From an uncultured Candidatus Saccharibacteria bacterium (GTDB lineage Bacteria; Patescibacteriota; Saccharimonadia; Saccharimonadales; UBA10212): a stretch of DNA of 64,000 nucleotides. The number at the start of each line of letters is the position of its first letter. The stretch's first letter is position 1. The DNA lies in NCBI GenBank assembly GCA_964567555.1, contig CAZMNA010000001.1, forward strand, positions 88,911 to 152,910, written 5' to 3'. The notes under the pieces were generated by a model. That model did not search any database and was not told where the DNA came from. It was given only the letters and a program-made list of their open reading frames with translations. Of this stretch, positions 1,061 through 9,307 are shown piece by piece. The position numbers were made by a program, and so were the translations under genes.

Positions 1061-2266
1061 ATGTTAGAGACTGCTCATGGTCTTATCCGCCGCGCTGGCA
1101 AAAAGTTGGGCTTAGACCAAGCCACGATTGATAAATTAATTGCTACTGATGCCGAACACGTCTTTGAGATAAAACTAGACAGCGGCAAAAAATTTGATGC
1201 CTACCGCGTTCAGCACAATAACAAGCTAGGGCCTTATAAGGGCGGTATCCGTTTTCACCCAGAAGTTAACCTGGATGAAGTCAGAGCCCTGGCAACACTT
1301 ATGAGCTTTAAGACGGCAGCGGCCGGGTTACCGCTGGGCGGCGGCAAAGGCGGCATTAGCGTTGACCCGCACGAACTTGATAAAGCCGAACTGGAAGAAC
1401 TTAGCCGAAAGTACGCTAAGGCGTTAGCCCCGCACATCGGGCCGGACAAAGATGTACCAGCGCCGGATGTTAACACCAACGCCCAGATTATTGATTGGAT
1501 GCTGGATGAATACCAAAAAGAGACTGGCGATAAATCCGGCGCCACCTTCACCGGCAAGAGCCTAGATAAAGGCGGCAGTTTAGGGCGCGACGCCGCCACT
1601 GGCCGCGGCGGTGTAATTGCCCTGCGCGAACTTCTCAAGCACACAGCTCAGGCAGAAAAAGAGTTGACTTATGCCGTCCAAGGATTTGGTAATGTTGGTT
1701 CGTTTTTTGCAACCGTAGCCAAAAAAGACCACCCCGGATGGAAAATGATTGCCGCCAGCGACTCCCGTGCGGCGCTATACAACCCTGACGGCTTAGACTC
1801 TAAAAAGCTGGATGAATATAAAGCCCAGGGCAAAAGCTTTGCCGATTACCACGAGCCGGGCGTAAAAGTTATCAACGGTGATGAAATGCTTGGTCTGTCC
1901 ATGGATGTGCTGGTACTAGCCGCACTGGGCGATGCTGTCACTAAAGCCAATGTGGATCAAATTAAAGCCAGCTTTATTGTTGAACTAGCCAACGGGCCGG
2001 TTAACGAAGCCGCCTTTGACATCCTGACCGCGCGCGGCGTCACGATTTTGCCAGATATTATTGCTAACGCTGGTGGCGTCATAGTCAGCTATTTAGAATG
2101 GGTCCAGAACAAAAACGGCGAACATTGGCCGGAAGATAAAGTTAACCGTGAGCTGGAAAATTATATGGTCAAGGCCGCTGAAGAACTTTACAAAACTGCT
2201 GACGCGCAAAACGTCAGCCTAAAAGAAGCGGCCTTCATCAACGCCATCAAAAACCTGACAAAGTAG
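1061..2266 (+). CDS. gdh: Glu/Leu/Phe/Val-family (glutamate) dehydrogenase
   Basis: SD AAGGGGAG upstream. KGGIRF and GLPLGGGKGG catalytic motifs, and a GFGNVG Rossmann motif. Confidence 0.9.
   Translation: MLETAHGLIRRAGKKLGLDQATIDKLIATDAEHVFEIKLDSGKKFDAYRVQHNNKLGPYKGGIRFHPEVNLDEVRALATLMSFKTAAAGLPLGGGKGGISVDPHELDKAELEELSRKYAKALAPHIGPDKDVPAPDVNTNAQIIDWMLDEYQKETGDKSGATFTGKSLDKGGSLGRDAATGRGGVIALRELLKHTAQAEKELTYAVQGFGNVGSFFATVAKKDHPGWKMIAASDSRAALYNPDGLDSKKLDEYKAQGKSFADYHEPGVKVINGDEMLGLSMDVLVLAALGDAVTKANVDQIKASFIVELANGPVNEAAFDILTARGVTILPDIIANAGGVIVSYLEWVQNKNGEHWPEDKVNRELENYMVKAAEELYKTADAQNVSLKEAAFINAIKNLTK
2236..2262 (+). repeat. 27-bp direct repeat, copy A (last codons of gdh)
   Basis: catcaacgccatcaaaaacctgacaaa is identical to 2885-2911. 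Both copies are followed by Rtag. Confidence 0.95.
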
Positions 2267-2319
2267 TAAGTTACCAAAAAATAAAAAAATGGTTTAATTG
2301 ATTTAGTATTGGAGGTTAT

Positions 2320-2871
2320 ATGGTTCAGCCAGAAGGTTTATCTAAAAAAGCCGAGCTTGTGCGAGTAACTGCAGCAGTTGGCATGATTGCTGCTGGGATG
2401 TTCAGTGGTGGACTTGGTGGCTATGAGATAACAAAATCAGATAGCGATTCTGCTCGCAGCGATGCTCGAGCCGCCGCAGCTAGTGATGCTGGCTGCCTAG
2501 CCCTAGAAAATCATTTAAAACAAAGTGGTAGTGGCCGTGTCGTCCGAATTGACATTTTAACCCACCGTCAAGTCCTAGACTGCGGCCTGCAAGGTTTGGT
2601 GGATTTCGATATTGGTCCTTTGCCGCTGAGCGGTAAGGTTACTGACCTAGTCGTAGAATTACCAAGTCCTGATCAACTACAACAAGACCTCCTACACCAA
2701 ACTCACAGCGCTGAAGATCCTAGAACAGGAGAAGAAGTAGCTGGCATTATTGTTGGGGGTCTGATTGGTGGTGCTGTTGGCGCGAAAGTAGGTGAGCTAA
2801 TATCCGCACTTGATGATAGGCGCCGCCGCAAAAATAATCGGAAAAGATCGTCAACCATAGCAAGCGCTTAA
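2320..2871 (+). CDS. hypothetical 2-TM glycine-zipper membrane protein (orf183)
   Basis: SD GGAGG. TM-like VTAAVGMIAAGMFSGGLGG and VAGIIVGGLIGGAVGAKVG, and a basic tail RRRRKNNRKR. No family recognised. Confidence 0.55.
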   Translation: MVQPEGLSKKAELVRVTAAVGMIAAGMFSGGLGGYEITKSDSDSARSDARAAAASDAGCLALENHLKQSGSGRVVRIDILTHRQVLDCGLQGLVDFDIGPLPLSGKVTDLVVELPSPDQLQQDLLHQTHSAEDPRTGEEVAGIIVGGLIGGAVGAKVGELISALDDRRRRKNNRKRSSTIASA

Positions 2872-2884
2872 TTTAATAGCCCCC

Positions 2885-2911
2885 CATCAACGCCATCAAA
2901 AACCTGACAAA
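2885..2911 (+). repeat. 27-bp direct repeat, copy B (orphaned duplicate of gdh 3' end)
   Basis: Identical to 2236-2262. It would still encode INAIKNLTK-stop. Lies just upstream of the TATAAT (2927-2932) of tRNA-Met. Confidence 0.95.
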
Positions 2912-2947
2912 ATAGGTCGTGGTTGTTATAATTACCCCTGTTACGTG

Positions 2948-3023
2948 GCAGGGTAGCTCAGTTGGTTAGAGCACAGGACTCATAAGCCTGGGGTCGCGAG
3001 TTCAAATCTCGCCCCTGCTACCA
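2948..3023 (+). tRNA. tRNA-Met (CAU), elongator-like
   Basis: 76-nt cloverleaf with anticodon loop CTCATAA, T-arm GCGAG/TTCAAAT/CTCGC and encoded CCA. Resembles E. coli elongator tRNA-Met from memory. One A:G mismatch at 31:39. Confidence 0.85.
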
Positions 3024-3030
3024 AATAAAA

Positions 3031-3063
3031 AGTCTGTTTGGTACAAAACAGACTTTTTATTTT
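3031..3063 (+). terminator. rho-independent terminator after tRNA-Met
   Basis: Stem AGTCTGTTT / AAACAGACT followed by TTTTTATTTT. Confidence 0.8.
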
Positions 3064-3236
3064 AAAGCTAGCTACTCGCTAGAATCGAATCTATATCTTT
3101 GAATTCCGGTGTGGTTTCCGGTAATTCTAAAGCAAGTACATCCATTTTTTGTTCCCCTTTTTTGTTTTTTATTTTTTGGACTTAAGACACATTATACATA
3201 AACATTATCAAAAGTCAAATAAAAGTGTTTGAATAT

Positions 3237-3253: not shown

Positions 3254-3379
3254 AACTTTCCGCTAGGATCTTAGTCTTTTTAGTTCGAGCTTAGGCACGA
3301 CCATTTCGGACACGGCCGTTCGCAACCTCACTGACTAAGGGGTCGTACCTAGCAAGTTAAACAAGGATTTAAATTTAAA

Positions 3380-3690: not shown

Positions 3691-4266
3691 CTAGGCTACT
3701 TCCTCTTCGCCCAAAATAGCATGTAACTTTGCCAGTCCGCGGGAAGCATGAGACTTAACTGTACCTAGCTTAATCCTAAGTTCGGCTGCAATTTGTTCAT
3801 AGGTCTTTCCCTCAAAATAAAACTTAAAAATAACAACCTGCTCCTGTTCAGAAAGCTTTTGGATTGCTTCCAAAATACGTTCTCTTTGTTCCCGTACGAT
3901 AACCTTCTTCTCAGGACTGTCTTCTCTACTTAGTATAGACAGGAGGTGGGGTTCGGGGTCAGTACTTATCTCATGGCTTCTTCTACCACGATGTTTTTTC
4001 AACTCGTCTTTTGATGTATTAATTAAAATGCTGTGCAGCCACGTCAACGGATGTGCTTCACCTCTAAATTGCCTGGATCTCTCCATAGCCTTCACGACGG
4101 TAGAATTCACATAATCATCTGGCTCTATTATGCTTCCGTGGGAACGCCTATCGCGTAAAATCTTCCGCGCCGCGTAAGCCGTCAAGGCCACTAGTGCCGT
4201 ACCTTCAAGTGCGTGTACCACCAGCTCTTTGTTGTCATCTGGCTTTGGCTCTTCATGTTTCGGCAT
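3691..4266 (-). CDS. sigma-70 family (ECF-like) RNA polymerase sigma factor
   Basis: Region 4 HTH KTYEQIAAELRIKLGTVKSHASRGLAKL, and region-2-like HPLTWLHSILINT. Track start 4311 is TTG. ATG at 4266 follows TATACT by 6 nt. Confidence 0.75.
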   Translation of the reverse strand: MPKHEEPKPDDNKELVVHALEGTALVALTAYAARKILRDRRSHGSIIEPDDYVNSTVVKAMERSRQFRGEAHPLTWLHSILINTSKDELKKHRGRRSHEISTDPEPHLLSILSREDSPEKKVIVREQRERILEAIQKLSEQEQVVIFKFYFEGKTYEQIAAELRIKLGTVKSHASRGLAKLHAILGEEEVA

Positions 4267-4341
4267 AATCGCAGTATAACGCTCGTTAAAGGACTTATCT
4301 AGATATAGCAATCTATCAGCTTACTCTACCGTAGCAGGCTA

Positions 4342-4359
4342 GAATTTAGCTGTTATGAG
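4342..4359 (+). promoter_or_regulatory. GAATTTAG-type intergenic motif, site 1
   Basis: GAATTTAGCTGTTATGAG in the sortase/sigma intergenic spacer. Related to sites at 52663, 55129 and 55459. Confidence 0.3.
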
Positions 4360-4448
4360 AATAAGTTGACCGAGTGGGAGCTCACGCTAAAAGTAGCCGC
4401 GGATCCCCGCCGCCTCGTCATATTCTCCCCTCCGGAGTAAACCACCGT

Positions 4449-4973
4449 CTAGTGCTGATGTGGCTTTACTAGTACCGCCCTTGCAGTCATCCAGTCGTCA
4501 CTTGTGTAGCGGGGCCAGCAGCAGCGGAAGAAGATTGTCTCAATATGGGGATGCTTCTTGCTATATCTCTCAATGTACCCGTTGCCTTTCCACTGTGGAT
4601 GTGGTTCAGGAGTCCGGACAAACCGGTACGTATACCACACACCGTTCCACCTGATCTTTGCGACGTAGCCTGGCTTGATCAGGTAGAGGTTATAGAACGG
4701 GCCGTGGGCGCCATAGCCTGGTACAGGCGTGACGTCGTGGCCATCGATCACCATCGTCTTGCTCATTCCGGGCCGAGCGTGGAAATTGTTATCCCAGACT
4801 GGGCCGAGCATCTCATGAGCGTCCGTATCCGTGCGGAGGATTTGCTTGTTGAAAATCCCCAGAGCCGGGATGGTCAGGAGAGTCCGGTTTCGCGGCTGGG
4901 CTGCGATACCGCTAGGCGCCGTAAGAACCATCGATGCCAGCACGGCAACGACGAGCAACATTACTCTTTTCAT
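4449..4973 (-). CDS. sortase family transpeptidase
   Basis: Signal/anchor MKRVMLLVVAVLASM after SD AAGAGG. LTIPALGI, VIDGHD, YNLYLIKPGYVAKI and a Cys-containing RCCWP segment match the sortase beta-barrel layout. Confidence 0.7.
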   Translation of the reverse strand: MKRVMLLVVAVLASMVLTAPSGIAAQPRNRTLLTIPALGIFNKQILRTDTDAHEMLGPVWDNNFHARPGMSKTMVIDGHDVTPVPGYGAHGPFYNLYLIKPGYVAKIRWNGVWYTYRFVRTPEPHPQWKGNGYIERYSKKHPHIETIFFRCCWPRYTSDDWMTARAVLVKPHQH

Positions 4974-5233
4974 ACCTCTTTCCATGCTGTGTATCACCCT
5001 TTCTGAGTAAATTATAATGTGGAACACTACGAGCCGAGAAGCCTAAAAGTTCTAGACATCTCAAAACTTTAACGACTAAACTGTAACACTAATATTAAAA
5101 TCTGTCAAGAGGAGTATCGCCGCTCTCCGTCTGTTATTCAGTCATGGTAGCCGAAGTTCATTCGAATTGGAACGCTATCTTGGCAGAACTGGTTAGGTGG
5201 AAGACCCTATGCAGTGAGAGTACTCAGAGCCAG

Positions 5234-5917
5234 CTATTCTTCCTCGGCCTCTGACTCATCCGTAACTACTCTAATGGTGTCTCTTAAAAACACACCTGGT
5301 GCACGGCCAACATGAAGCTGAGCAGACGCACGATGAACGGTACACCTGTCTATCAAAACGGCTCTATCTTTTGGTGCTTTTTCCGAAGTGGTTGCGAACC
5401 ATTTGGATATGCCACCACTCAACGCTGGAACTGGACCAACATAAATTCGAGTAGGATTACCTCGGTGATTAACTATAACGGCTTCAGCATCGCCTAAAAA
5501 ACGGTCACGATGTGTCGTACCCGGGGGCGAAAAGGGTAATAGATTTCCTGTCATAGTATGTAAAATCGAAGCTGCTGAACGAACTTTGCCGACTCTATAA
5601 AGCAGCGCATGCGACAAAGCAGTGTCTGGGGATACTTCTCTATAATCCCTATAAAGGCCGTCAATTTGCGTGACTGCCATCTGTAAATTAGCAGTCAGAT
5701 TATCGGCGTTAACTTCGCCAGTTATATCTTCTGCAGAAGAAGAGGCACTTCGCCCAACAACTAACTTACCGACGGTGGCTACTGTGAGCTCACCGCCTGG
5801 GGAGATGCGAGTTTCGTATTTTACAGAGGCTTGCATCGACTGGTCGAATTCAGCCGAGTGCCAATTTGGTTGTATTTCACCTAAGTCATAGAAATGTGAA
5901 GAAACTACTTTTACCAT
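5234..5917 (-). CDS. hypothetical protein (orphan O1, 227 aa)
   Basis: Long ORF with an acidic C-terminus and no TM or signal peptide. Preceded by a TTGCAA-16-TAATAT promoter inside the repeated element. Confidence 0.6.
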   Translation of the reverse strand: MVKVVSSHFYDLGEIQPNWHSAEFDQSMQASVKYETRISPGGELTVATVGKLVVGRSASSSAEDITGEVNADNLTANLQMAVTQIDGLYRDYREVSPDTALSHALLYRVGKVRSAASILHTMTGNLLPFSPPGTTHRDRFLGDAEAVIVNHRGNPTRIYVGPVPALSGGISKWFATTSEKAPKDRAVLIDRCTVHRASAQLHVGRAPGVFLRDTIRVVTDESEAEEE

Positions 5918-5950
5918 TTGTGATTAAAATATTAAACCGAAATCATTAAC

Positions 5951-5979
5951 TTGCAAGCATAAGCCAAACAAAAAATTCC
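5951..5979 (-). promoter_or_regulatory. recurrent promoter-like element, copy 1
   Basis: Minus-strand GGAATTTTTTGTTTGGCTTATGCTTGCAA. 24 nt identical to 6604-6627. TTGCAA lies 16 nt from TAATAT (5929-5934). Confidence 0.6.
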
Positions 5980-5989
5980 CTGTTAATGT

Positions 5990-6559
5990 TTAGGCGGTAG
6001 TACTTGAACTTACTGCATCAGCAATATACGACTCAGGAAAACGCCTTCTCTGAAGCTCTTCAGCAGTCATGGTTTTTACGGCCTCGAGATAGCTTTCCAC
6101 TGACCACTGAAAGTTATTTAACTCTCGGCGCATTCGGTCTCCGAAGGGGGATGTCTCGGGTCTAGCAGCAGGATCTTCTATATCTGTACGTTTTAACTTT
6201 TCGTGATGTCTTGCAAGACCATCATTAAAATCATAGGTAAACCATTCTGACGATAACTCATCTTGCCAATGCGATTTAACAATCCCGAACCTTAGATGCA
6301 AACCAATGTCCTTACCATCAACTTGATAGGGTATCGGTACAACCGGCGTAAATGCTTCAATATCGTCTCCGCGCTGACGCTTTTCGGGTATGAGCTGTAG
6401 AAGAGTCTCAAAAATTAAGTCATACTTTTGCTCTGAGCTCAATCTTTCGAAGTCTACAGGCGTTTCAGGTTCTTCTTCAAGAATTGTACTTAACTTATCT
6501 TGCTCTGAATGAACAACAGTTCTTTGTTTCTGCACTCTAACCACTTGCTCTGGTTTCAC
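5990..6559 (-). CDS. hypothetical protein (orphan O2, 189 aa)
   Basis: Track ORF 5990..6745 runs through the promoter element and the tRNA fragment. GTG at 6559 has SD AAGGAG 6 nt upstream. Acidic and soluble. Confidence 0.55.
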   Translation of the reverse strand: MKPEQVVRVQKQRTVVHSEQDKLSTILEEEPETPVDFERLSSEQKYDLIFETLLQLIPEKRQRGDDIEAFTPVVPIPYQVDGKDIGLHLRFGIVKSHWQDELSSEWFTYDFNDGLARHHEKLKRTDIEDPAARPETSPFGDRMRRELNNFQWSVESYLEAVKTMTAEELQRRRFPESYIADAVSSSTTA

Positions 6560-6603
6560 ATTAAACTCCTTAACTACTATTACTCTAGAACTTGTTTTTA
6601 GAT

Positions 6604-6627
6604 TTGCAAGCATAAGCCAAACAAAAA
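6604..6627 (-). promoter_or_regulatory. recurrent promoter-like element, copy 2
   Basis: Minus-strand TTTTTGTTTGGCTTATGCTTGCAA, then 16 nt and TAGAGT. Confidence 0.6.
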
Positions 6628-6646
6628 GACCCCTTTTTACGGAGGT
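6621..6646 (-). terminator. terminator hairpin downstream of the tRNA-fragment copy
   Basis: Minus-strand GACCTC-cgtaaaa-GGGGTC followed by TTTTTGTTT. The G:U pair only works on the minus strand. Confidence 0.55.
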
Positions 6647-6661
6647 CAAAGTGCTTATGCT

Positions 6662-6682
6662 TGGTAGCGGGGGCAGGATTTG
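6662..6682 (-). repeat. 21-nt duplicate of the tRNA-fMet 3' end (T-loop to CCA), att-like
   Basis: CAAATCCTGCCCCCGCTACCA (minus) is identical to 6873-6893. No matching T-stem 5' strand, so this is not a second tRNA. Confidence 0.9.
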
Positions 6683-6838
6683 GTCACAGATATTTTTCCG
6701 TGCGGGAAAATTCCGCGACCCCGCCTCAGCTCGGGTGGCTGCCAAGCCACGCCGGGCTTCCGGCCGTCCGAACTGCCGCCAGGCAGTTCTCCCCTCCGAC
6801 CTCTACTCGGTCGCAGATCAAACATTGCCATGTGACCA
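6681..6838 (-). ncRNA. candidate structured RNA / integration remnant
   Basis: 8-bp closing stem TGGTCACA (6831-6838) / TGTGACCA (6681-6688). Two hairpins with identical TGGC loops (6735-6750, 6771-6788). GC-rich. The only ORFs are track artefacts. Confidence 0.3.
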
Positions 6839-6840
6839 CG

Positions 6841-6864
6841 AAAAAAGCCCCAGCAAGCTGGGAC
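6841..6864 (-). terminator. rho-independent terminator after tRNA-fMet
   Basis: Minus-strand CCCAG-cttg-CTGGG followed by GCTTTTTT. Confidence 0.7.
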
Positions 6865-6872
6865 CCTTTTCG

Positions 6873-6947
6873 TGGTAGCGGGGGCAGGATTTGCACCTGC
6901 GACCTCGTGGTTATGAGCCACGCGAGCTACTACTGCTCCACCCCGCG
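6873..6947 (-). tRNA. initiator tRNA-fMet (CAU)
   Basis: CGCGGGGTGGAGCAG... start typical of initiator tRNA, with a C1:U72 mismatch. Anticodon loop CTCATAA and encoded CCA. Coordinates cross-checked against track ORF 6655..6921. Confidence 0.9.
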
Positions 6948-7002
6948 ATATCTTGCCTCCCCTAAGGCTAGTAGGTTATTTTAGACGTTTTTAAGGGGTT
7001 AG

Positions 7003-7449
7003 TCAATTGCCCGGCACGTTGCGGCCAAGCAAGAAATCTTTCCAGGCGTCTAGGTTCTTTATGTAAGTTGGCTGCGTTTTTTTGGTCGTCTGGTTTTGAG
7101 TTGCCGTCAGGCTTTTATCGACATATTTCATGGCTGTAGCGTTAGAAATCAGCCAAACTTGCTCGCCTTGACCCGCCAAGCCCAGATCTTGCCGCGCCGC
7201 CAAGTCCAAGTATTGATTGGTCTTGTAGTATTGGTTTTCAAGCGCTGTGTTTTGGTTTTGCAGGTTGATAACAGCGTTTTGCTGCTTGAGCGTAGAAATT
7301 TGTTTTTGCAGCTCGTAATTGGTCTGGATAGTTTTAACGCCGCTCCAAGAAATCGCCAGCACAATCAGAACAAAGATATAAAGCCCGATGTCCTGCGGAC
7401 TTCGTTTAATTTTTCCTAGATGCAATAAAAAATTACTGAACATATCCAC
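7003..7449 (-). CDS. septum formation initiator family protein (FtsB/DivIC-like)
   Basis: N-terminal TM, then the coiled coil ELQKQISTLKQQNAVINLQNQNTALENQ, and YLDLAARQDLGL. Confidence 0.75.
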   Translation of the reverse strand: MDMFSNFLLHLGKIKRSPQDIGLYIFVLIVLAISWSGVKTIQTNYELQKQISTLKQQNAVINLQNQNTALENQYYKTNQYLDLAARQDLGLAGQGEQVWLISNATAMKYVDKSLTATQNQTTKKTQPTYIKNLDAWKDFLLGRNVPGN

Positions 7450-7512
7450 TTTTTAGCTTAGCAGTTTTTATGACCGGCAGCTTGAAAGCTATTTGTTATA
7501 CTGGCATGTGAT

Positions 7513-7588
7513 GGGGGAGTAGCTCAGGGGTTAGAGCAGGCGGCTCATAACCGCTTGGTCGCAGGTTCAAATCCTGCCTCCCCCACCA
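7513..7588 (+). tRNA. tRNA with CAU anticodon, tRNA-Ile2 (lysidine)-like
   Basis: Cloverleaf GGGGGAG.../CTCCCCC-A-CCA. GAGCAGGCGGCTCATAACCGCTTGGTCGC closely resembles E. coli ileX from memory. The Ile2 versus Met assignment is inference. Confidence 0.8.
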
Positions 7589-7613
7589 AATTTATTAATA
7601 TACTTGTAGATTC

Positions 7614-8246
7614 CTAGAAGGGGCTGTTATAAAAATCTTTCCAGGCAGACCGAAGTATAAGATCCCCTGGTACGATTCCAATTATCTGATTGACTATTTG
7701 TTGCTTCAATTCTTCGATGTATTCCGGGGTTTTCATTCCTCTGGCAGCCGCTTGCTGTGACAGCACCAAACCTATACGAGCAATCAGAGAAACCACCCTC
7801 GACTCTAGCTCGGGGTCATCCCATATCTCACTCGGGCAGATTTCCTTAACAAACCTCTCCGCATCTCTTGGATTGGAAAGATGTAACTCAAGAGCATCCT
7901 TCATTACCCTAAAAGCTTCATATGCTCTGATGGCCCCGAATCGAAACTCTGATGATTCACGTTCACCCCACGTGCGATCGGCCAGCATAATCTCATTTAC
8001 ATATTGTACTGGTGAGATATTTGTATCTGTGAGACGATACAGCCCCATCAATCCCCACTCGATTTTAAACGCATTGTTGTCATGACGCTCGAACGGCCGA
8101 GTTCGGTCTATGCCTCCGGTTATCTCTGCTAAAAGTATTGATATGTCACCCTCTTGAACTTCTTCTGCCTCGACTGTAGTTCCGTCGCCTTCGCCGCCGA
8201 CTAGTCTAAGAGCGCGCTGCCGCATATCTTTTTTGAATTCGTCCAC
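7614..8246 (-). CDS. hypothetical protein (orphan, 210 aa)
   Basis: GTG start 7 nt after TAAAAT (8254-8259). Soluble and acidic, with no recognised domain. Confidence 0.55.
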   Translation of the reverse strand: MDEFKKDMRQRALRLVGGEGDGTTVEAEEVQEGDISILLAEITGGIDRTRPFERHDNNAFKIEWGLMGLYRLTDTNISPVQYVNEIMLADRTWGERESSEFRFGAIRAYEAFRVMKDALELHLSNPRDAERFVKEICPSEIWDDPELESRVVSLIARIGLVLSQQAAARGMKTPEYIEELKQQIVNQIIGIVPGDLILRSAWKDFYNSPF

Positions 8247-8359
8247 TAAGACAATTTTACACCACGGACTTAATAAGGCAGCGCTGGAGATAAGATTAAC
8301 CGAGGGCTAAGCCGAGTAGGTCCGCTAGTGGTTGCTGGTGCTCCAAAACAAGAAGCGAC

Positions 8360-9307
8360 CTAGCGGTTGGCCAGCAGTTCAAGAGCTTCATAGGGCGAGT
8401 GAGTTTTCATAAAAGCTTCGCGGAGTTGGCTAGCGCCGTCAAAGCCGTTGATATAGACCTTGCAGAATTTACGCAGGGGCTCAAACTTACGCTCGCCGTT
8501 TTTGTAGGTAGCTTGGTGCAGCTTTATATGTTTGGCAAATAGTTCTAGCTTTTGGTCTTTGCCCCACTTGCTCCACGGGCTGTGTTCAGAAAAAATAAAT
8601 GGATCGTGAAAGGCACCGCGGCCAATCATGATGCCGTCTAGCTTGTACTTTTTGGCTAAAGTTTCGGCTTGGGCACGGCTGGCAACATCGCCGTTGCCAA
8701 CAATCAACGTAGTAGGGCAGGTGTGATCGCGCATTTGCCGAGCCTTGCCAATCAAATCCCAGTCAGCCGGCGTTTTGGAGAGTTGTTTGGCTGTCCGCCC
8801 ATGAATAGTTAACATGTTAAGTTTTTGACCCAGCAGAAATTCCAGCCAGTTCGTATCTACTGTTGTAAATCCTACTCTGGTTTTAACGGATACAGGGAAG
8901 TCGGCGCCTGCCCCCTCCTGCACTGCCGCGATTATGTCAGCCGCCAGCGTCCGGTTGTTTATCAAAGCGGCGCAGGCACCATTTTTAATGACGGTTTTGA
9001 CTGGACAGCCCATATTGATGTCTACCCCTGCAAAGCCCATTTTTTTGAGTTCTTGGGTGGTTTTAAAATAATTCTCCGGCTTTAGGCCCCAGACTTGGGC
9101 AATGACCGGACCTTCTTTTTTGGATAGCCAGAGCTTGGGCATTAGCTTTTCCCTGCCCGGGCTCTGCAGACCGTCCACATTCACAAATTCTGTAAACATC
9201 AAATCCGGCGGGGCCAGTTCTGCCACAATTTGTCTAAAGACCGTGTCCGTCACATCGTCCATCGGCGCCAGCGCCAAAAACGGTTCGGGTAAATTATATA
9301 AATTCAC
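8360..9307 (-). CDS. dus: tRNA-dihydrouridine synthase
   Basis: LAPMDDVTD, DINMGCPV and TIHGRT motifs of the Dus TIM-barrel family. Confidence 0.9.
   Translation of the reverse strand: MNLYNLPEPFLALAPMDDVTDTVFRQIVAELAPPDLMFTEFVNVDGLQSPGREKLMPKLWLSKKEGPVIAQVWGLKPENYFKTTQELKKMGFAGVDINMGCPVKTVIKNGACAALINNRTLAADIIAAVQEGAGADFPVSVKTRVGFTTVDTNWLEFLLGQKLNMLTIHGRTAKQLSKTPADWDLIGKARQMRDHTCPTTLIVGNGDVASRAQAETLAKKYKLDGIMIGRGAFHDPFIFSEHSPWSKWGKDQKLELFAKHIKLHQATYKNGERKFEPLRKFCKVYINGFDGASQLREAFMKTHSPYEALELLANR

Follow-up and report, generated by a model that had tools for sequence, protein, structure and literature searches.

The junction between gdh, which encodes a Glu/Leu/Phe/Val dehydrogenase, and the tRNA-Met gene downstream of it was analyzed in a 64,000-nt stretch of DNA from an uncultured Candidatus Saccharibacteria bacterium (contig CAZMNA010000001.1; the whole stretch is hereafter called the window). 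The end of gdh is present twice at this junction, and a single open reading frame (ORF) of 183 codons, orf183, lies between the two copies. A preliminary description of the window had read this arrangement as an insertion that regenerated the 3′ end of gdh. The features of the locus are as follows, in window coordinates.

1061–2266, plus strand: gdh, 401 aa, intact, ending ...INAIKNLTK-TAG (Pfam ELFV_dehydrog_N and ELFV_dehydrog, E-values of 1e-50 to 1e-64).
2236–2266, plus strand: repeat copy 1, the last nine gdh codons and TAG (27-mer at 2236–2262, G2263, TAG at 2264–2266).
2267–2884, plus strand: inserted DNA (the insert), 618 nt, or 649 nt including one repeat copy; missing from the relative L026 (alignment, repeat scan).
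2311–2315, plus strand: Shine-Dalgarno sequence GGAGG, 4 nt 5′ of the orf183 ATG.
2320–2871, plus strand: orf183, 183 aa, with two hydrophobic Gly-rich helices, a middle domain of about 100 aa and a polybasic C-terminal tail (hydropathy, HMMER).
2885–2915, plus strand: repeat copy 2, a displaced gdh-end fragment (27-mer at 2885–2911, A2912, TAG at 2913–2915).
2904–2932, plus strand: tRNA-Met promoter, with −35 CTGACA (2904–2909, inside copy 2), a 17-nt spacer and TGtTATAAT, the −10 ending at 2932 (promoter scan).
2947–3023, plus strand: tRNA-Met (CAT), 77 nt (ARAGORN; Rfam, 68 bits).
3023–3062, plus strand: hairpin with 20-nt arms, 95% complementary and flanked by A/T runs; likely terminator of the gdh-orf183-tRNA unit (inverted-repeat scan).

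A duplicated gene end that overlaps a promoter

The 27-mer CATCAACGCCATCAAAAACCTGACAAA occurs in two exact copies on the plus strand, at 2236–2262 and 2885–2911, in a search of the 64-kb window that allowed up to three mismatches. The chance expectation was 0.00 matches in 100 shuffles, and the 27-mer is the first-listed direct-repeat family in a repeat scan of the whole window. With just two copies in 64 kb, a common genomic repeat is ruled out. The duplication extends past the 27-mer through the stop codon (2236–2266 versus 2885–2915), giving 31 nt of which 30 are identical; the sole mismatch is G2263 versus A2912, and the right edge of the repeat is exactly the gdh stop codon. The exact 27-bp duplication of the preliminary description is thus confirmed, as is its observation that each copy is followed by RTAG and could terminate gdh (G2263-TAG and A2912-TAG). 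The copies are separated by 622 nt when measured between the 27-mers and by 618 nt between the 31-mers. In the 19 nt 5′ of the copies, 10 positions are identical, a marginal value that about 1% of random 19-mers from the window reach, and a 40-nt comparison upstream of copy 2 gave weak similarity (16/40).

The window species is known from one set of environmental samples only, and 17 contigs of its population that carry orf183 are on record. Ten of these, assembled independently by JGI, ENA and Logan, were fetched. Their identity to the window is 99.88% or higher, and all of those that span the site have both repeat copies. Because these ten independent contigs agree, an assembly artefact is ruled out, and the two-copy structure is taken to be real and fixed in the population.

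The repeat is a segment with two roles, as it encodes the gdh C-terminus and stop and also forms the −35 and upstream part of the tRNA-Met promoter. This promoter scored 11/12, with a TG-extended −10 (TATAAT, 2927–2932) that ends 14 nt 5′ of the tRNA. Copy 2 had earlier been placed directly upstream of the promoter; this position required correction, since copy 2 contains the −35 hexamer. The present role of copy 2 is that of the upstream promoter half only. In copy 1, the same hexamer (2255–2260), followed by 16 nt and AAAAAT, makes a weak promoter-like site that faces orf183. No terminator was predicted on either side of orf183, up to gdh in one direction and up to the tRNA promoter in the other. 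Co-transcription of orf183 with gdh is therefore probable, the alternative being the weak copy-1 promoter, while tRNA-Met would retain its own strong promoter.

Relatives with a similar gdh are metagenome-assembled genomes of Candidatus Saccharimonadales/Saccharibacteria, retrieved from genome and metagenome collections; the contigs used for comparison, whether or not they carry gdh, have labels between L015 and L045. The closest other gdh genes are those of L025 (82% identical) and L026 (78%); L027 is a duplicate of L026. The window and L026/L027 have a common gene order: FtsH, TilS, DUF2127, gdh, tRNA-Met(+), RRM gene, tRNA-Met(−), DivIC, tRNA-Met(+), Dus and RuvA. In L026/L027, the repeat is present as a single copy, 26/27 identical to that of the window and contiguous with the tRNA-Met promoter. 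The L026 gdh end, ...TTCATTAACGCCATCAAAAACCTGACAAAGTAA, runs straight into tcaatagttgaTATACTacccctgtt, with tRNA-Met further on, and the window bases 3′ of copy 2 (gtcgtggttgtTATAATtacccctgtt) are homologous to those 3′ of the L026 gdh stop. The L026 promoter has the same architecture, CTGACA-17-TGATATACT (CTGACA-17-TGnTATAnT), with its −35 inside the single gdh end; the gdh end, −35, 17-nt spacer, TGn-extended −10 and the bases "tacccctgtt" are contiguous. In a MAFFT alignment, the L026 gdh end pairs with copy 2 of the window, and a single gap of 649 columns accounts for one repeat plus the insert. The tRNA-Met genes are orthologous, with 67–75 of 77 nt identical between the window and its counterparts in L018, L026, L028, L030 and L035. 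Post-gdh orf183 is absent from all six gdh-bearing lineages of this neighborhood that were examined (L018, L025, L026/L027, L028/L029, L030 and L031).

orf183 and its family

The single ORF of the insert is orf183, led by its Shine-Dalgarno sequence as the preliminary description had noted for the 622 bp between the repeats. Its hydrophobic stretches span residues ~13–34 and ~139–162 by hydropathy, and K/R make up 8 of the last 20 residues. A word-indexed protein search recovered orf183 only, and exhaustive HMMER recovered nine distant, full-length homologs (188–200 aa, 27–33% identical), so that the protein is not an orphan. The two hydrophobic Gly-rich helices and the basic tail are common to the family, and its alignment has four invariant residues, namely C59, C88, P115 and G30. 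Thus, orf183 is a genuine gene of a small, unnamed family. By the positive-inside rule, both termini would be cytoplasmic and the middle portion of about 100 residues, which holds the two cysteines, would be extracellular.

No match to the orf183 family was found above the gathering score in Pfam, nor any in PHROG or PADLOC; the only Pfam match of orf183, VIT1, is sub-threshold (14 bits versus a cutoff of 28). The protein had been described as a glycine-zipper protein with two transmembrane helices and a polybasic tail. The two Gly-rich helices and the tail stand, but orf183 exceeds the gathering score for none of the Pfam glycine-zipper or two-transmembrane families. An AlphaFold2 model built on a 10-sequence alignment had a pLDDT of 55, too low for a fold search, and no statement on the fold is therefore made. 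The composition of orf183 is atypical and foreign-like, which fits horizontal arrival: its third-position G+C content (GC3) is 0.333 versus 0.498 ± 0.066 for 55 window genes, and its codon log-likelihood (−1.25 versus −1.147 ± 0.065) is among the lowest in the window.

Family members with readable flanks, other than those in L035/L036, were found in L032, L034, L043/L044 and L045, in contexts unrelated to the window locus. These contexts include positions after an asparaginase-like gene, after an S30AE gene and before an acyltransferase gene. The L034 homolog is bracketed by a weak 25-nt repeat (76% identical), and L032, L035, L043 and L045 have no repeat; flanking repeats were therefore rejected as a hallmark of the family. 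No second copy of the insert and no similarity to the rest of the window were found. As a separate observation, a perfect 15-nt inverted repeat (CCAAAAAATAAAAAA / TTTTTTATTTTTTGG) at 2274–2288 and 3165–3179 has one arm in the A-rich leader of orf183 and the other in that of a minus-strand micro-ORF. It is of low complexity and is probably due to chance or a shared translation-leader feature.

Origin of the duplication

With a probability of about 0.8, we consider that an event placed orf183 at a formerly continuous junction of gdh end and promoter, duplicating the 31 bp that the two share. The ancestral layout would have been that of L026, in which gdh ends within the tRNA-Met promoter and its last codons supply the −35 and the upstream A-tract. 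DNA of about 650 bp carrying orf183 would have entered exactly at this overlap, leaving the shared 31 bp twofold. Copy 1 would complete gdh with the same C-terminus and the same TAG, and copy 2 would keep the tRNA promoter whole. The gdh-stop/tRNA-Met junction proposed as ancestral in the preliminary description is supported by the single-copy site and the flank homology in L026/L027. Its broader claim of an insertion that regenerates the gdh 3′ end held for the duplication and the empty site, while a site-specific recombinase, att arms and an excised form were not found.

Campbell-type integration of a small circle carrying its own copy of the gdh end is the mechanism we tentatively favor, at somewhat less than even odds. 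It is favored because the repeat ends at the stop codon, because the layout is that of a regenerated target and a displaced fragment, and because the neighboring tRNA bears the textbook form of such a scar. Also counted in its favor are the exact and unique repeat, the single-copy site and contiguous promoter of L026/L027, the lack of orf183 after gdh in the six lineages and the atypical composition of orf183. The neighboring scar, the variable DNA beyond gdh and the codon conservation of the gdh tail (described below) mark the locus as prone to recombination and count for this reading too. Integration of such a circle would regenerate the target and displace the original fragment. The repeat, the empty site with its homologous flank, the promoter overlap and the composition of orf183 are observed, whereas we infer which way the event ran, that a circle took part and that an enzyme acted; the recombinase may have worked in trans, or it may have belonged to a larger element that has since been lost apart from the insert. 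The 27-bp direct repeats would also permit precise loss of the cassette, restoring an L026-like junction. An empty-site junction would then read gdh ...GCGGCCTTCATCAACGCCATCAAAAACCTGACAAARTAG directly followed by GTCGTGGTTGTTATAAT, and the junction of an excised circle would read ...GCTTAATTTAATAGCCCCC, the 31-mer and then TAAGTTACCAAAAAAT (...TTTAATAGCCCCC-CATCAACGCC...AAAGTAG-TAAGTTACC).

Several observations weigh against Campbell-type integration or complicate it. In agreement with the preliminary description, a Pfam scan of 21 window ORFs, orf183 included, turned up no integrase or other recombinase; it did not extend to the remainder of the window and genome. At 618 nt, the insert is far below known integrative elements in size, and neither dyad symmetry nor a hairpin was found in the 27-mer. 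A search of 2.9 million viral contigs gave no exact match to the 27-mer and thus no attP-bearing element; six 20-mer matches in these contigs are coincidental, as they lie in unrelated phage genes (57–60% GC) that encode NAIKNLT. No phage or plasmid counterpart of orf183 was found, and cargo of either kind was ruled out given that orf183 has no PHROG, PADLOC, phage or plasmid match. No convincing flanking repeats were found at the other family members. The ten fetched contigs, all clonal, all have the insert, and no empty site was found among them. The empty-site relative L026 is distant (gdh 78% identical), and pairwise identities among the lineages are star-like (gdh 72–82%, TilS ~50%). Because the lineages are star-like and distant, phylogeny is uninformative about polarity, and the tree cannot choose between insertion and deletion.

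A close rival, although in our estimate a rather unlikely one, is that foreign DNA was joined at this site without a site-specific enzyme, through illegitimate or microhomology recombination or staggered-break repair, for example after transformation. Only events that duplicated these 31 bp would have spared both gdh and the tRNA promoter, and selection would have set the extent of the repeat. Consistent with this, the intact part of copy 2 extends from about −55 through the last base of the gdh stop, which lies 11 nt 5′ of the −10, and both roles need exactly this segment. The lack of any recombinase, att symmetry or element ends among the findings, the marginal gdh similarity just 5′ of copy 2 (10/19) and the family members elsewhere without cassette hallmarks point the same way. 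However, illegitimate joins are not known to yield clean target duplications of about 30 bp that end exactly at a stop codon, and the duplicated tRNA 3′ end nearby is a classic integrase signature.

The polarity may also be the reverse. In L035/L036, of a more distant lineage, a DUF2127 gene on the minus strand (59% identical to that of the window) is followed by an orf183 homolog (31% identical), tRNA-Met and the RRM leader; there is no gdh, and the tRNA is inverted. Given this homolog in the same slot, orf183 might have been in place for a long time. Either the family has long occupied the slot and suffered repeated losses, or the slot is a hotspot that was used twice. Under the former, orf183 would have long resided in a DUF2127-(gdh)-tRNA-Met slot, the duplication would be ancient, and the L026-like junctions would have arisen by deletion. 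The copies would have stayed alike through constraint, which would act on copy 1 at the coding and nucleotide levels and on copy 2 as a promoter. The gdh tail is indeed very slow-changing (26/27 nt between the window and L026), so the identity of the repeats is no proof of recency, and the weak similarities upstream of copy 2 (10/19 and 16/40) could be an eroded longer duplication. Nevertheless, this scenario is unlikely. The GC3 and codon usage of orf183 are foreign-like, independent losses would be required in six lineages, and the other family members with readable flanks stand in unrelated contexts. Moreover, an earlier insertion with duplication would still be required, and the question would only be shifted back.

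It is highly improbable that the tRNA module, rather than orf183, is the part that moved. An ancestor with the order gdh-orf183-tRNA-Met(−) would have received L026-like donor DNA that brought the promoter and the last 31 bp of a donor gdh, through homologous recombination on the RRM side and an illegitimate join on the left. The orientation of tRNA-Met does vary among lineages (plus in the window, L026 and L015; minus in L018, L028, L030 and L035). The gdh tail is near-identical across lineages, so that a donor could match at 27/27, and the AAA/AAG mismatch between the copies is a synonymous variant that is present in L018 too. However, the compositionally foreign part is orf183, chance would have to place the left join 31 nt short of where a 1.2-kb donor gene ends, and the stop codon is TAG in both window copies versus TAA in L026 and L028.

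Any account without an insertion, with the 27-mer as a functional motif present twice or orf183 derived from a tandem duplication of the gdh 3′ end, is largely refuted: a −35-like CTGACA does face the downstream gene in both copies and a comparable 34-nt promoter-upstream repeat lies at 5951–5984 and 6604–6637, but the motif occurs nowhere else in 64 kb at up to three mismatches, copy 2 and its flank are collinear with the L026 gdh end and flank, orf183 homologs lie at unrelated loci, and the insert has no similarity to gdh. The local alignment score of insert and gdh was 19–21 versus 20.3 ± 2.2 for shuffles, and tandem duplication or de novo origin from gdh was rejected on this basis.

Insertion with duplication of the shared segment, the reading adopted above, was also compared with known mobile systems. 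A regenerated target together with a displaced fragment is the signature of integrase-made islands at gene 3′ ends, and it is used by Islander (PMC4383910). The window locus resembles such islands and prophage remnants in having an intact target at one end, a direct repeat of the 3′ end beside the original flank at the other, a relative with a single-copy empty site, and compositionally atypical cargo. It differs from them in that no integrase was found among the scanned ORFs, no attP among viral contigs and no excised form, the insert is a 618-nt one-gene unit, and the target is the tail of a protein gene that doubles as a promoter half.

Cis-mobilizable elements (CIMEs), known from ICESt1/ICESt3 of Streptococcus thermophilus, are flanked by att sites and lack an integrase. 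They likewise hold short cargo within attL/attR-like direct repeats, with the recombinase encoded elsewhere; however, neither an integrative element nor an integrase of matching specificity is known for the window genome, of which the window covers 64 kb out of at least 734 kb. The "minimal mobile elements" of Neisseria are alternative cassettes between conserved genes, swapped by homologous recombination after transformation. Similarly, the slot from gdh to the tRNA-Met/RRM gene holds orf183, an ATP-grasp gene, a defense island of the cyclic-oligonucleotide-based antiphage signaling system (CBASS) or nothing. Minimal mobile elements leave no target duplication, however, and the present lineages are too diverged (TilS ~50%) for routine homologous exchange. 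Casposons, among other elements that duplicate their target at a gene 3′ end, produce a target-site duplication of ~14–15 bp. The location is shared, but the duplication here is 31 bp, no terminal inverted repeats pairing the insert ends appeared in the repeat scan, and neither Cas1 nor a polymerase was found.

Like an integron cassette, the insert is a one-ORF unit of ~0.65 kb that is oriented with the upstream gene, and no strong promoter belonging to it is evident. Target DNA is not duplicated when integron cassettes insert, however, and an integron cassette was rejected because the insert has no attC-like hairpin and no GTTRRRY core sites. No significant hairpin was found on either strand at 2840–2930 or 2225–2320 (fold z of −1.8 to +0.4), and the stretch 2200–2950 is free of GTTRRRY and RYYYAAC motifs. 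Furthermore, the scanned ORFs yielded no IntI/attI platform, and the upstream neighbor is gdh. An insertion sequence, a miniature inverted-repeat transposable element or a transposon was likewise rejected on account of the missing terminal inverted repeats, the missing transposase and a duplication of 31 bp rather than 2–14 bp.

The finding is modest, namely a fairly ordinary insertion scar rather than a new mechanism, and a site-specific mechanism is unproven. It is a small variant of a known scar type, kept tidy by the overlap of gene end and promoter. It illustrates how a compact genome of the candidate phyla radiation gains a gene where the end of one gene and the promoter of the next overlap, with the shared segment duplicated and both functions kept. 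Additionally, the family that orf183 defines is small and had no name before; its proteins have two transmembrane helices and a predicted disulfide-type surface domain. Its members come from episymbiotic bacteria, whose surface proteins draw interest.

Variable DNA beyond gdh

The DNA directly 3′ of the gdh stop differs in every lineage. It consists of orf183 in the window, tRNA(+) in L026, tRNA(−) in L018 and L028, an ATP-grasp gene in L030 and an unknown gene in L031. In L025, an island (6207–8929 of that contig; 55–69% GC) with a winged-helix-like ORF and a CBASS pair (CD-NTase and Cap15) begins right after the gdh stop, and the last seven gdh codons are swapped for GC-richer ones. The L025 contig stops short of the far end of the island. 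We may speculate that its high GC would fit a high-GC source, for example an actinobacterial host.

The codon conservation of gdh peaks in its last 17–20 codons, where 57 of 69 codons with the same amino acid are the same, versus 31 expected, and this tail ranks top of all 20-codon windows. Of the 27-mer at the end of the tail, 26/27 nt are kept between the window and L026 despite a TilS identity of ~50%. The conservation (window 2207–2263) is also seen in L018, L028 and L030, in which the tRNA is inverted. There the tail cannot serve as the tRNA promoter, and the pattern implies a nucleotide-level constraint. The last ~50 bases of gdh could conceivably be a dedicated, conserved attB-like site of the Saccharimonadales clade, through which small one-gene cassettes lacking an integrase, and larger islands such as the high-GC CBASS island of L025, enter and leave while the incoming DNA re-supplies the gdh tail. 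Such a site would jointly explain the 31-bp repeat, the variable post-gdh DNA and the synonymous conservation of the tail, but we regard it as improbable. Apart from the conserved tail and the variable DNA that follows it, nothing hints at a more general phenomenon. If the gdh tail truly were a site of recombination, Saccharibacteria genetics, for which tools are currently few, would gain a candidate safe landing site and a starting point for finding a recombinase.

A second scar of like type lies 3.7 kb away. An initiator-like tRNA-Met on the minus strand (6873–6947) is followed by a terminator, 155 nt at 61% GC and, at 6662–6682, 21 nt that repeat its own 3′ end exactly. The 190-nt insert beyond this tRNA is missing from L026 and L028 and has no Rfam match. 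Duplication of a tRNA 3′ end is a classic integrase signature and suggests that such enzymes have acted in the locus. The arrangement at 6662–6947 is either a classic integrase scar that lacks the integrase or a small structured RNA whose 3′ end resembles that of a tRNA. The fold of the 211 nt in this region is strong at −104 kcal/mol, a figure that comes without a shuffle control.

Other features of the neighborhood were also observed. Between the RRM gene and tRNA-Met(−), where L026 and L028 have cupredoxin and kinase genes, the window has four minus-strand genes (3691–6640) that encode an ECF-type sigma factor, a sortase-like protein and two unknowns. Their GC3 is atypical (0.35–0.66 versus 0.50), and this is probably another acquired island. 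The 34-nt direct repeat mentioned above (5951–5984 and 6604–6637; 88% identical, 653 nt apart) lies 5′ of two adjacent minus-strand genes of unknown function, orf227 and orf189. Read on the minus strand, each copy has TTGCAA at its end, spaced like a −35 from an A/T-rich −10. This pair is a second duplicated upstream promoter half bracketing one gene.

Between tRNA-Met and the RRM gene, a 25-codon ORF (MDVLALELPETTPEFKDIDSILASS) lies on the minus strand at 3068–3145. Similar small ORFs were seen by eye at the matching place in L026, L028, L030 and L035, and a conserved micro-protein may be encoded there. The leader of the RRM-protein gene (~3260–3345; also in L018, L026, L028, L030 and L035) has two invariant blocks, TAGGATCTTAtCTGTTCT and TAAGtGGTCGTTCCTA, which are able to pair. 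It has no Rfam family and little covariation in six sequences and is a candidate autoregulatory leader. In lineages with a minus-oriented tRNA-Met, an operator-like palindrome, AATAACAGATG...CATCTGTTATT, surrounds the −10 of the tRNA promoter (L028, 5416–5465; L030, 6158–6230; L035, 1767–1810), and a resembling palindrome forms the post-tRNA terminator of the window (3023–3062).

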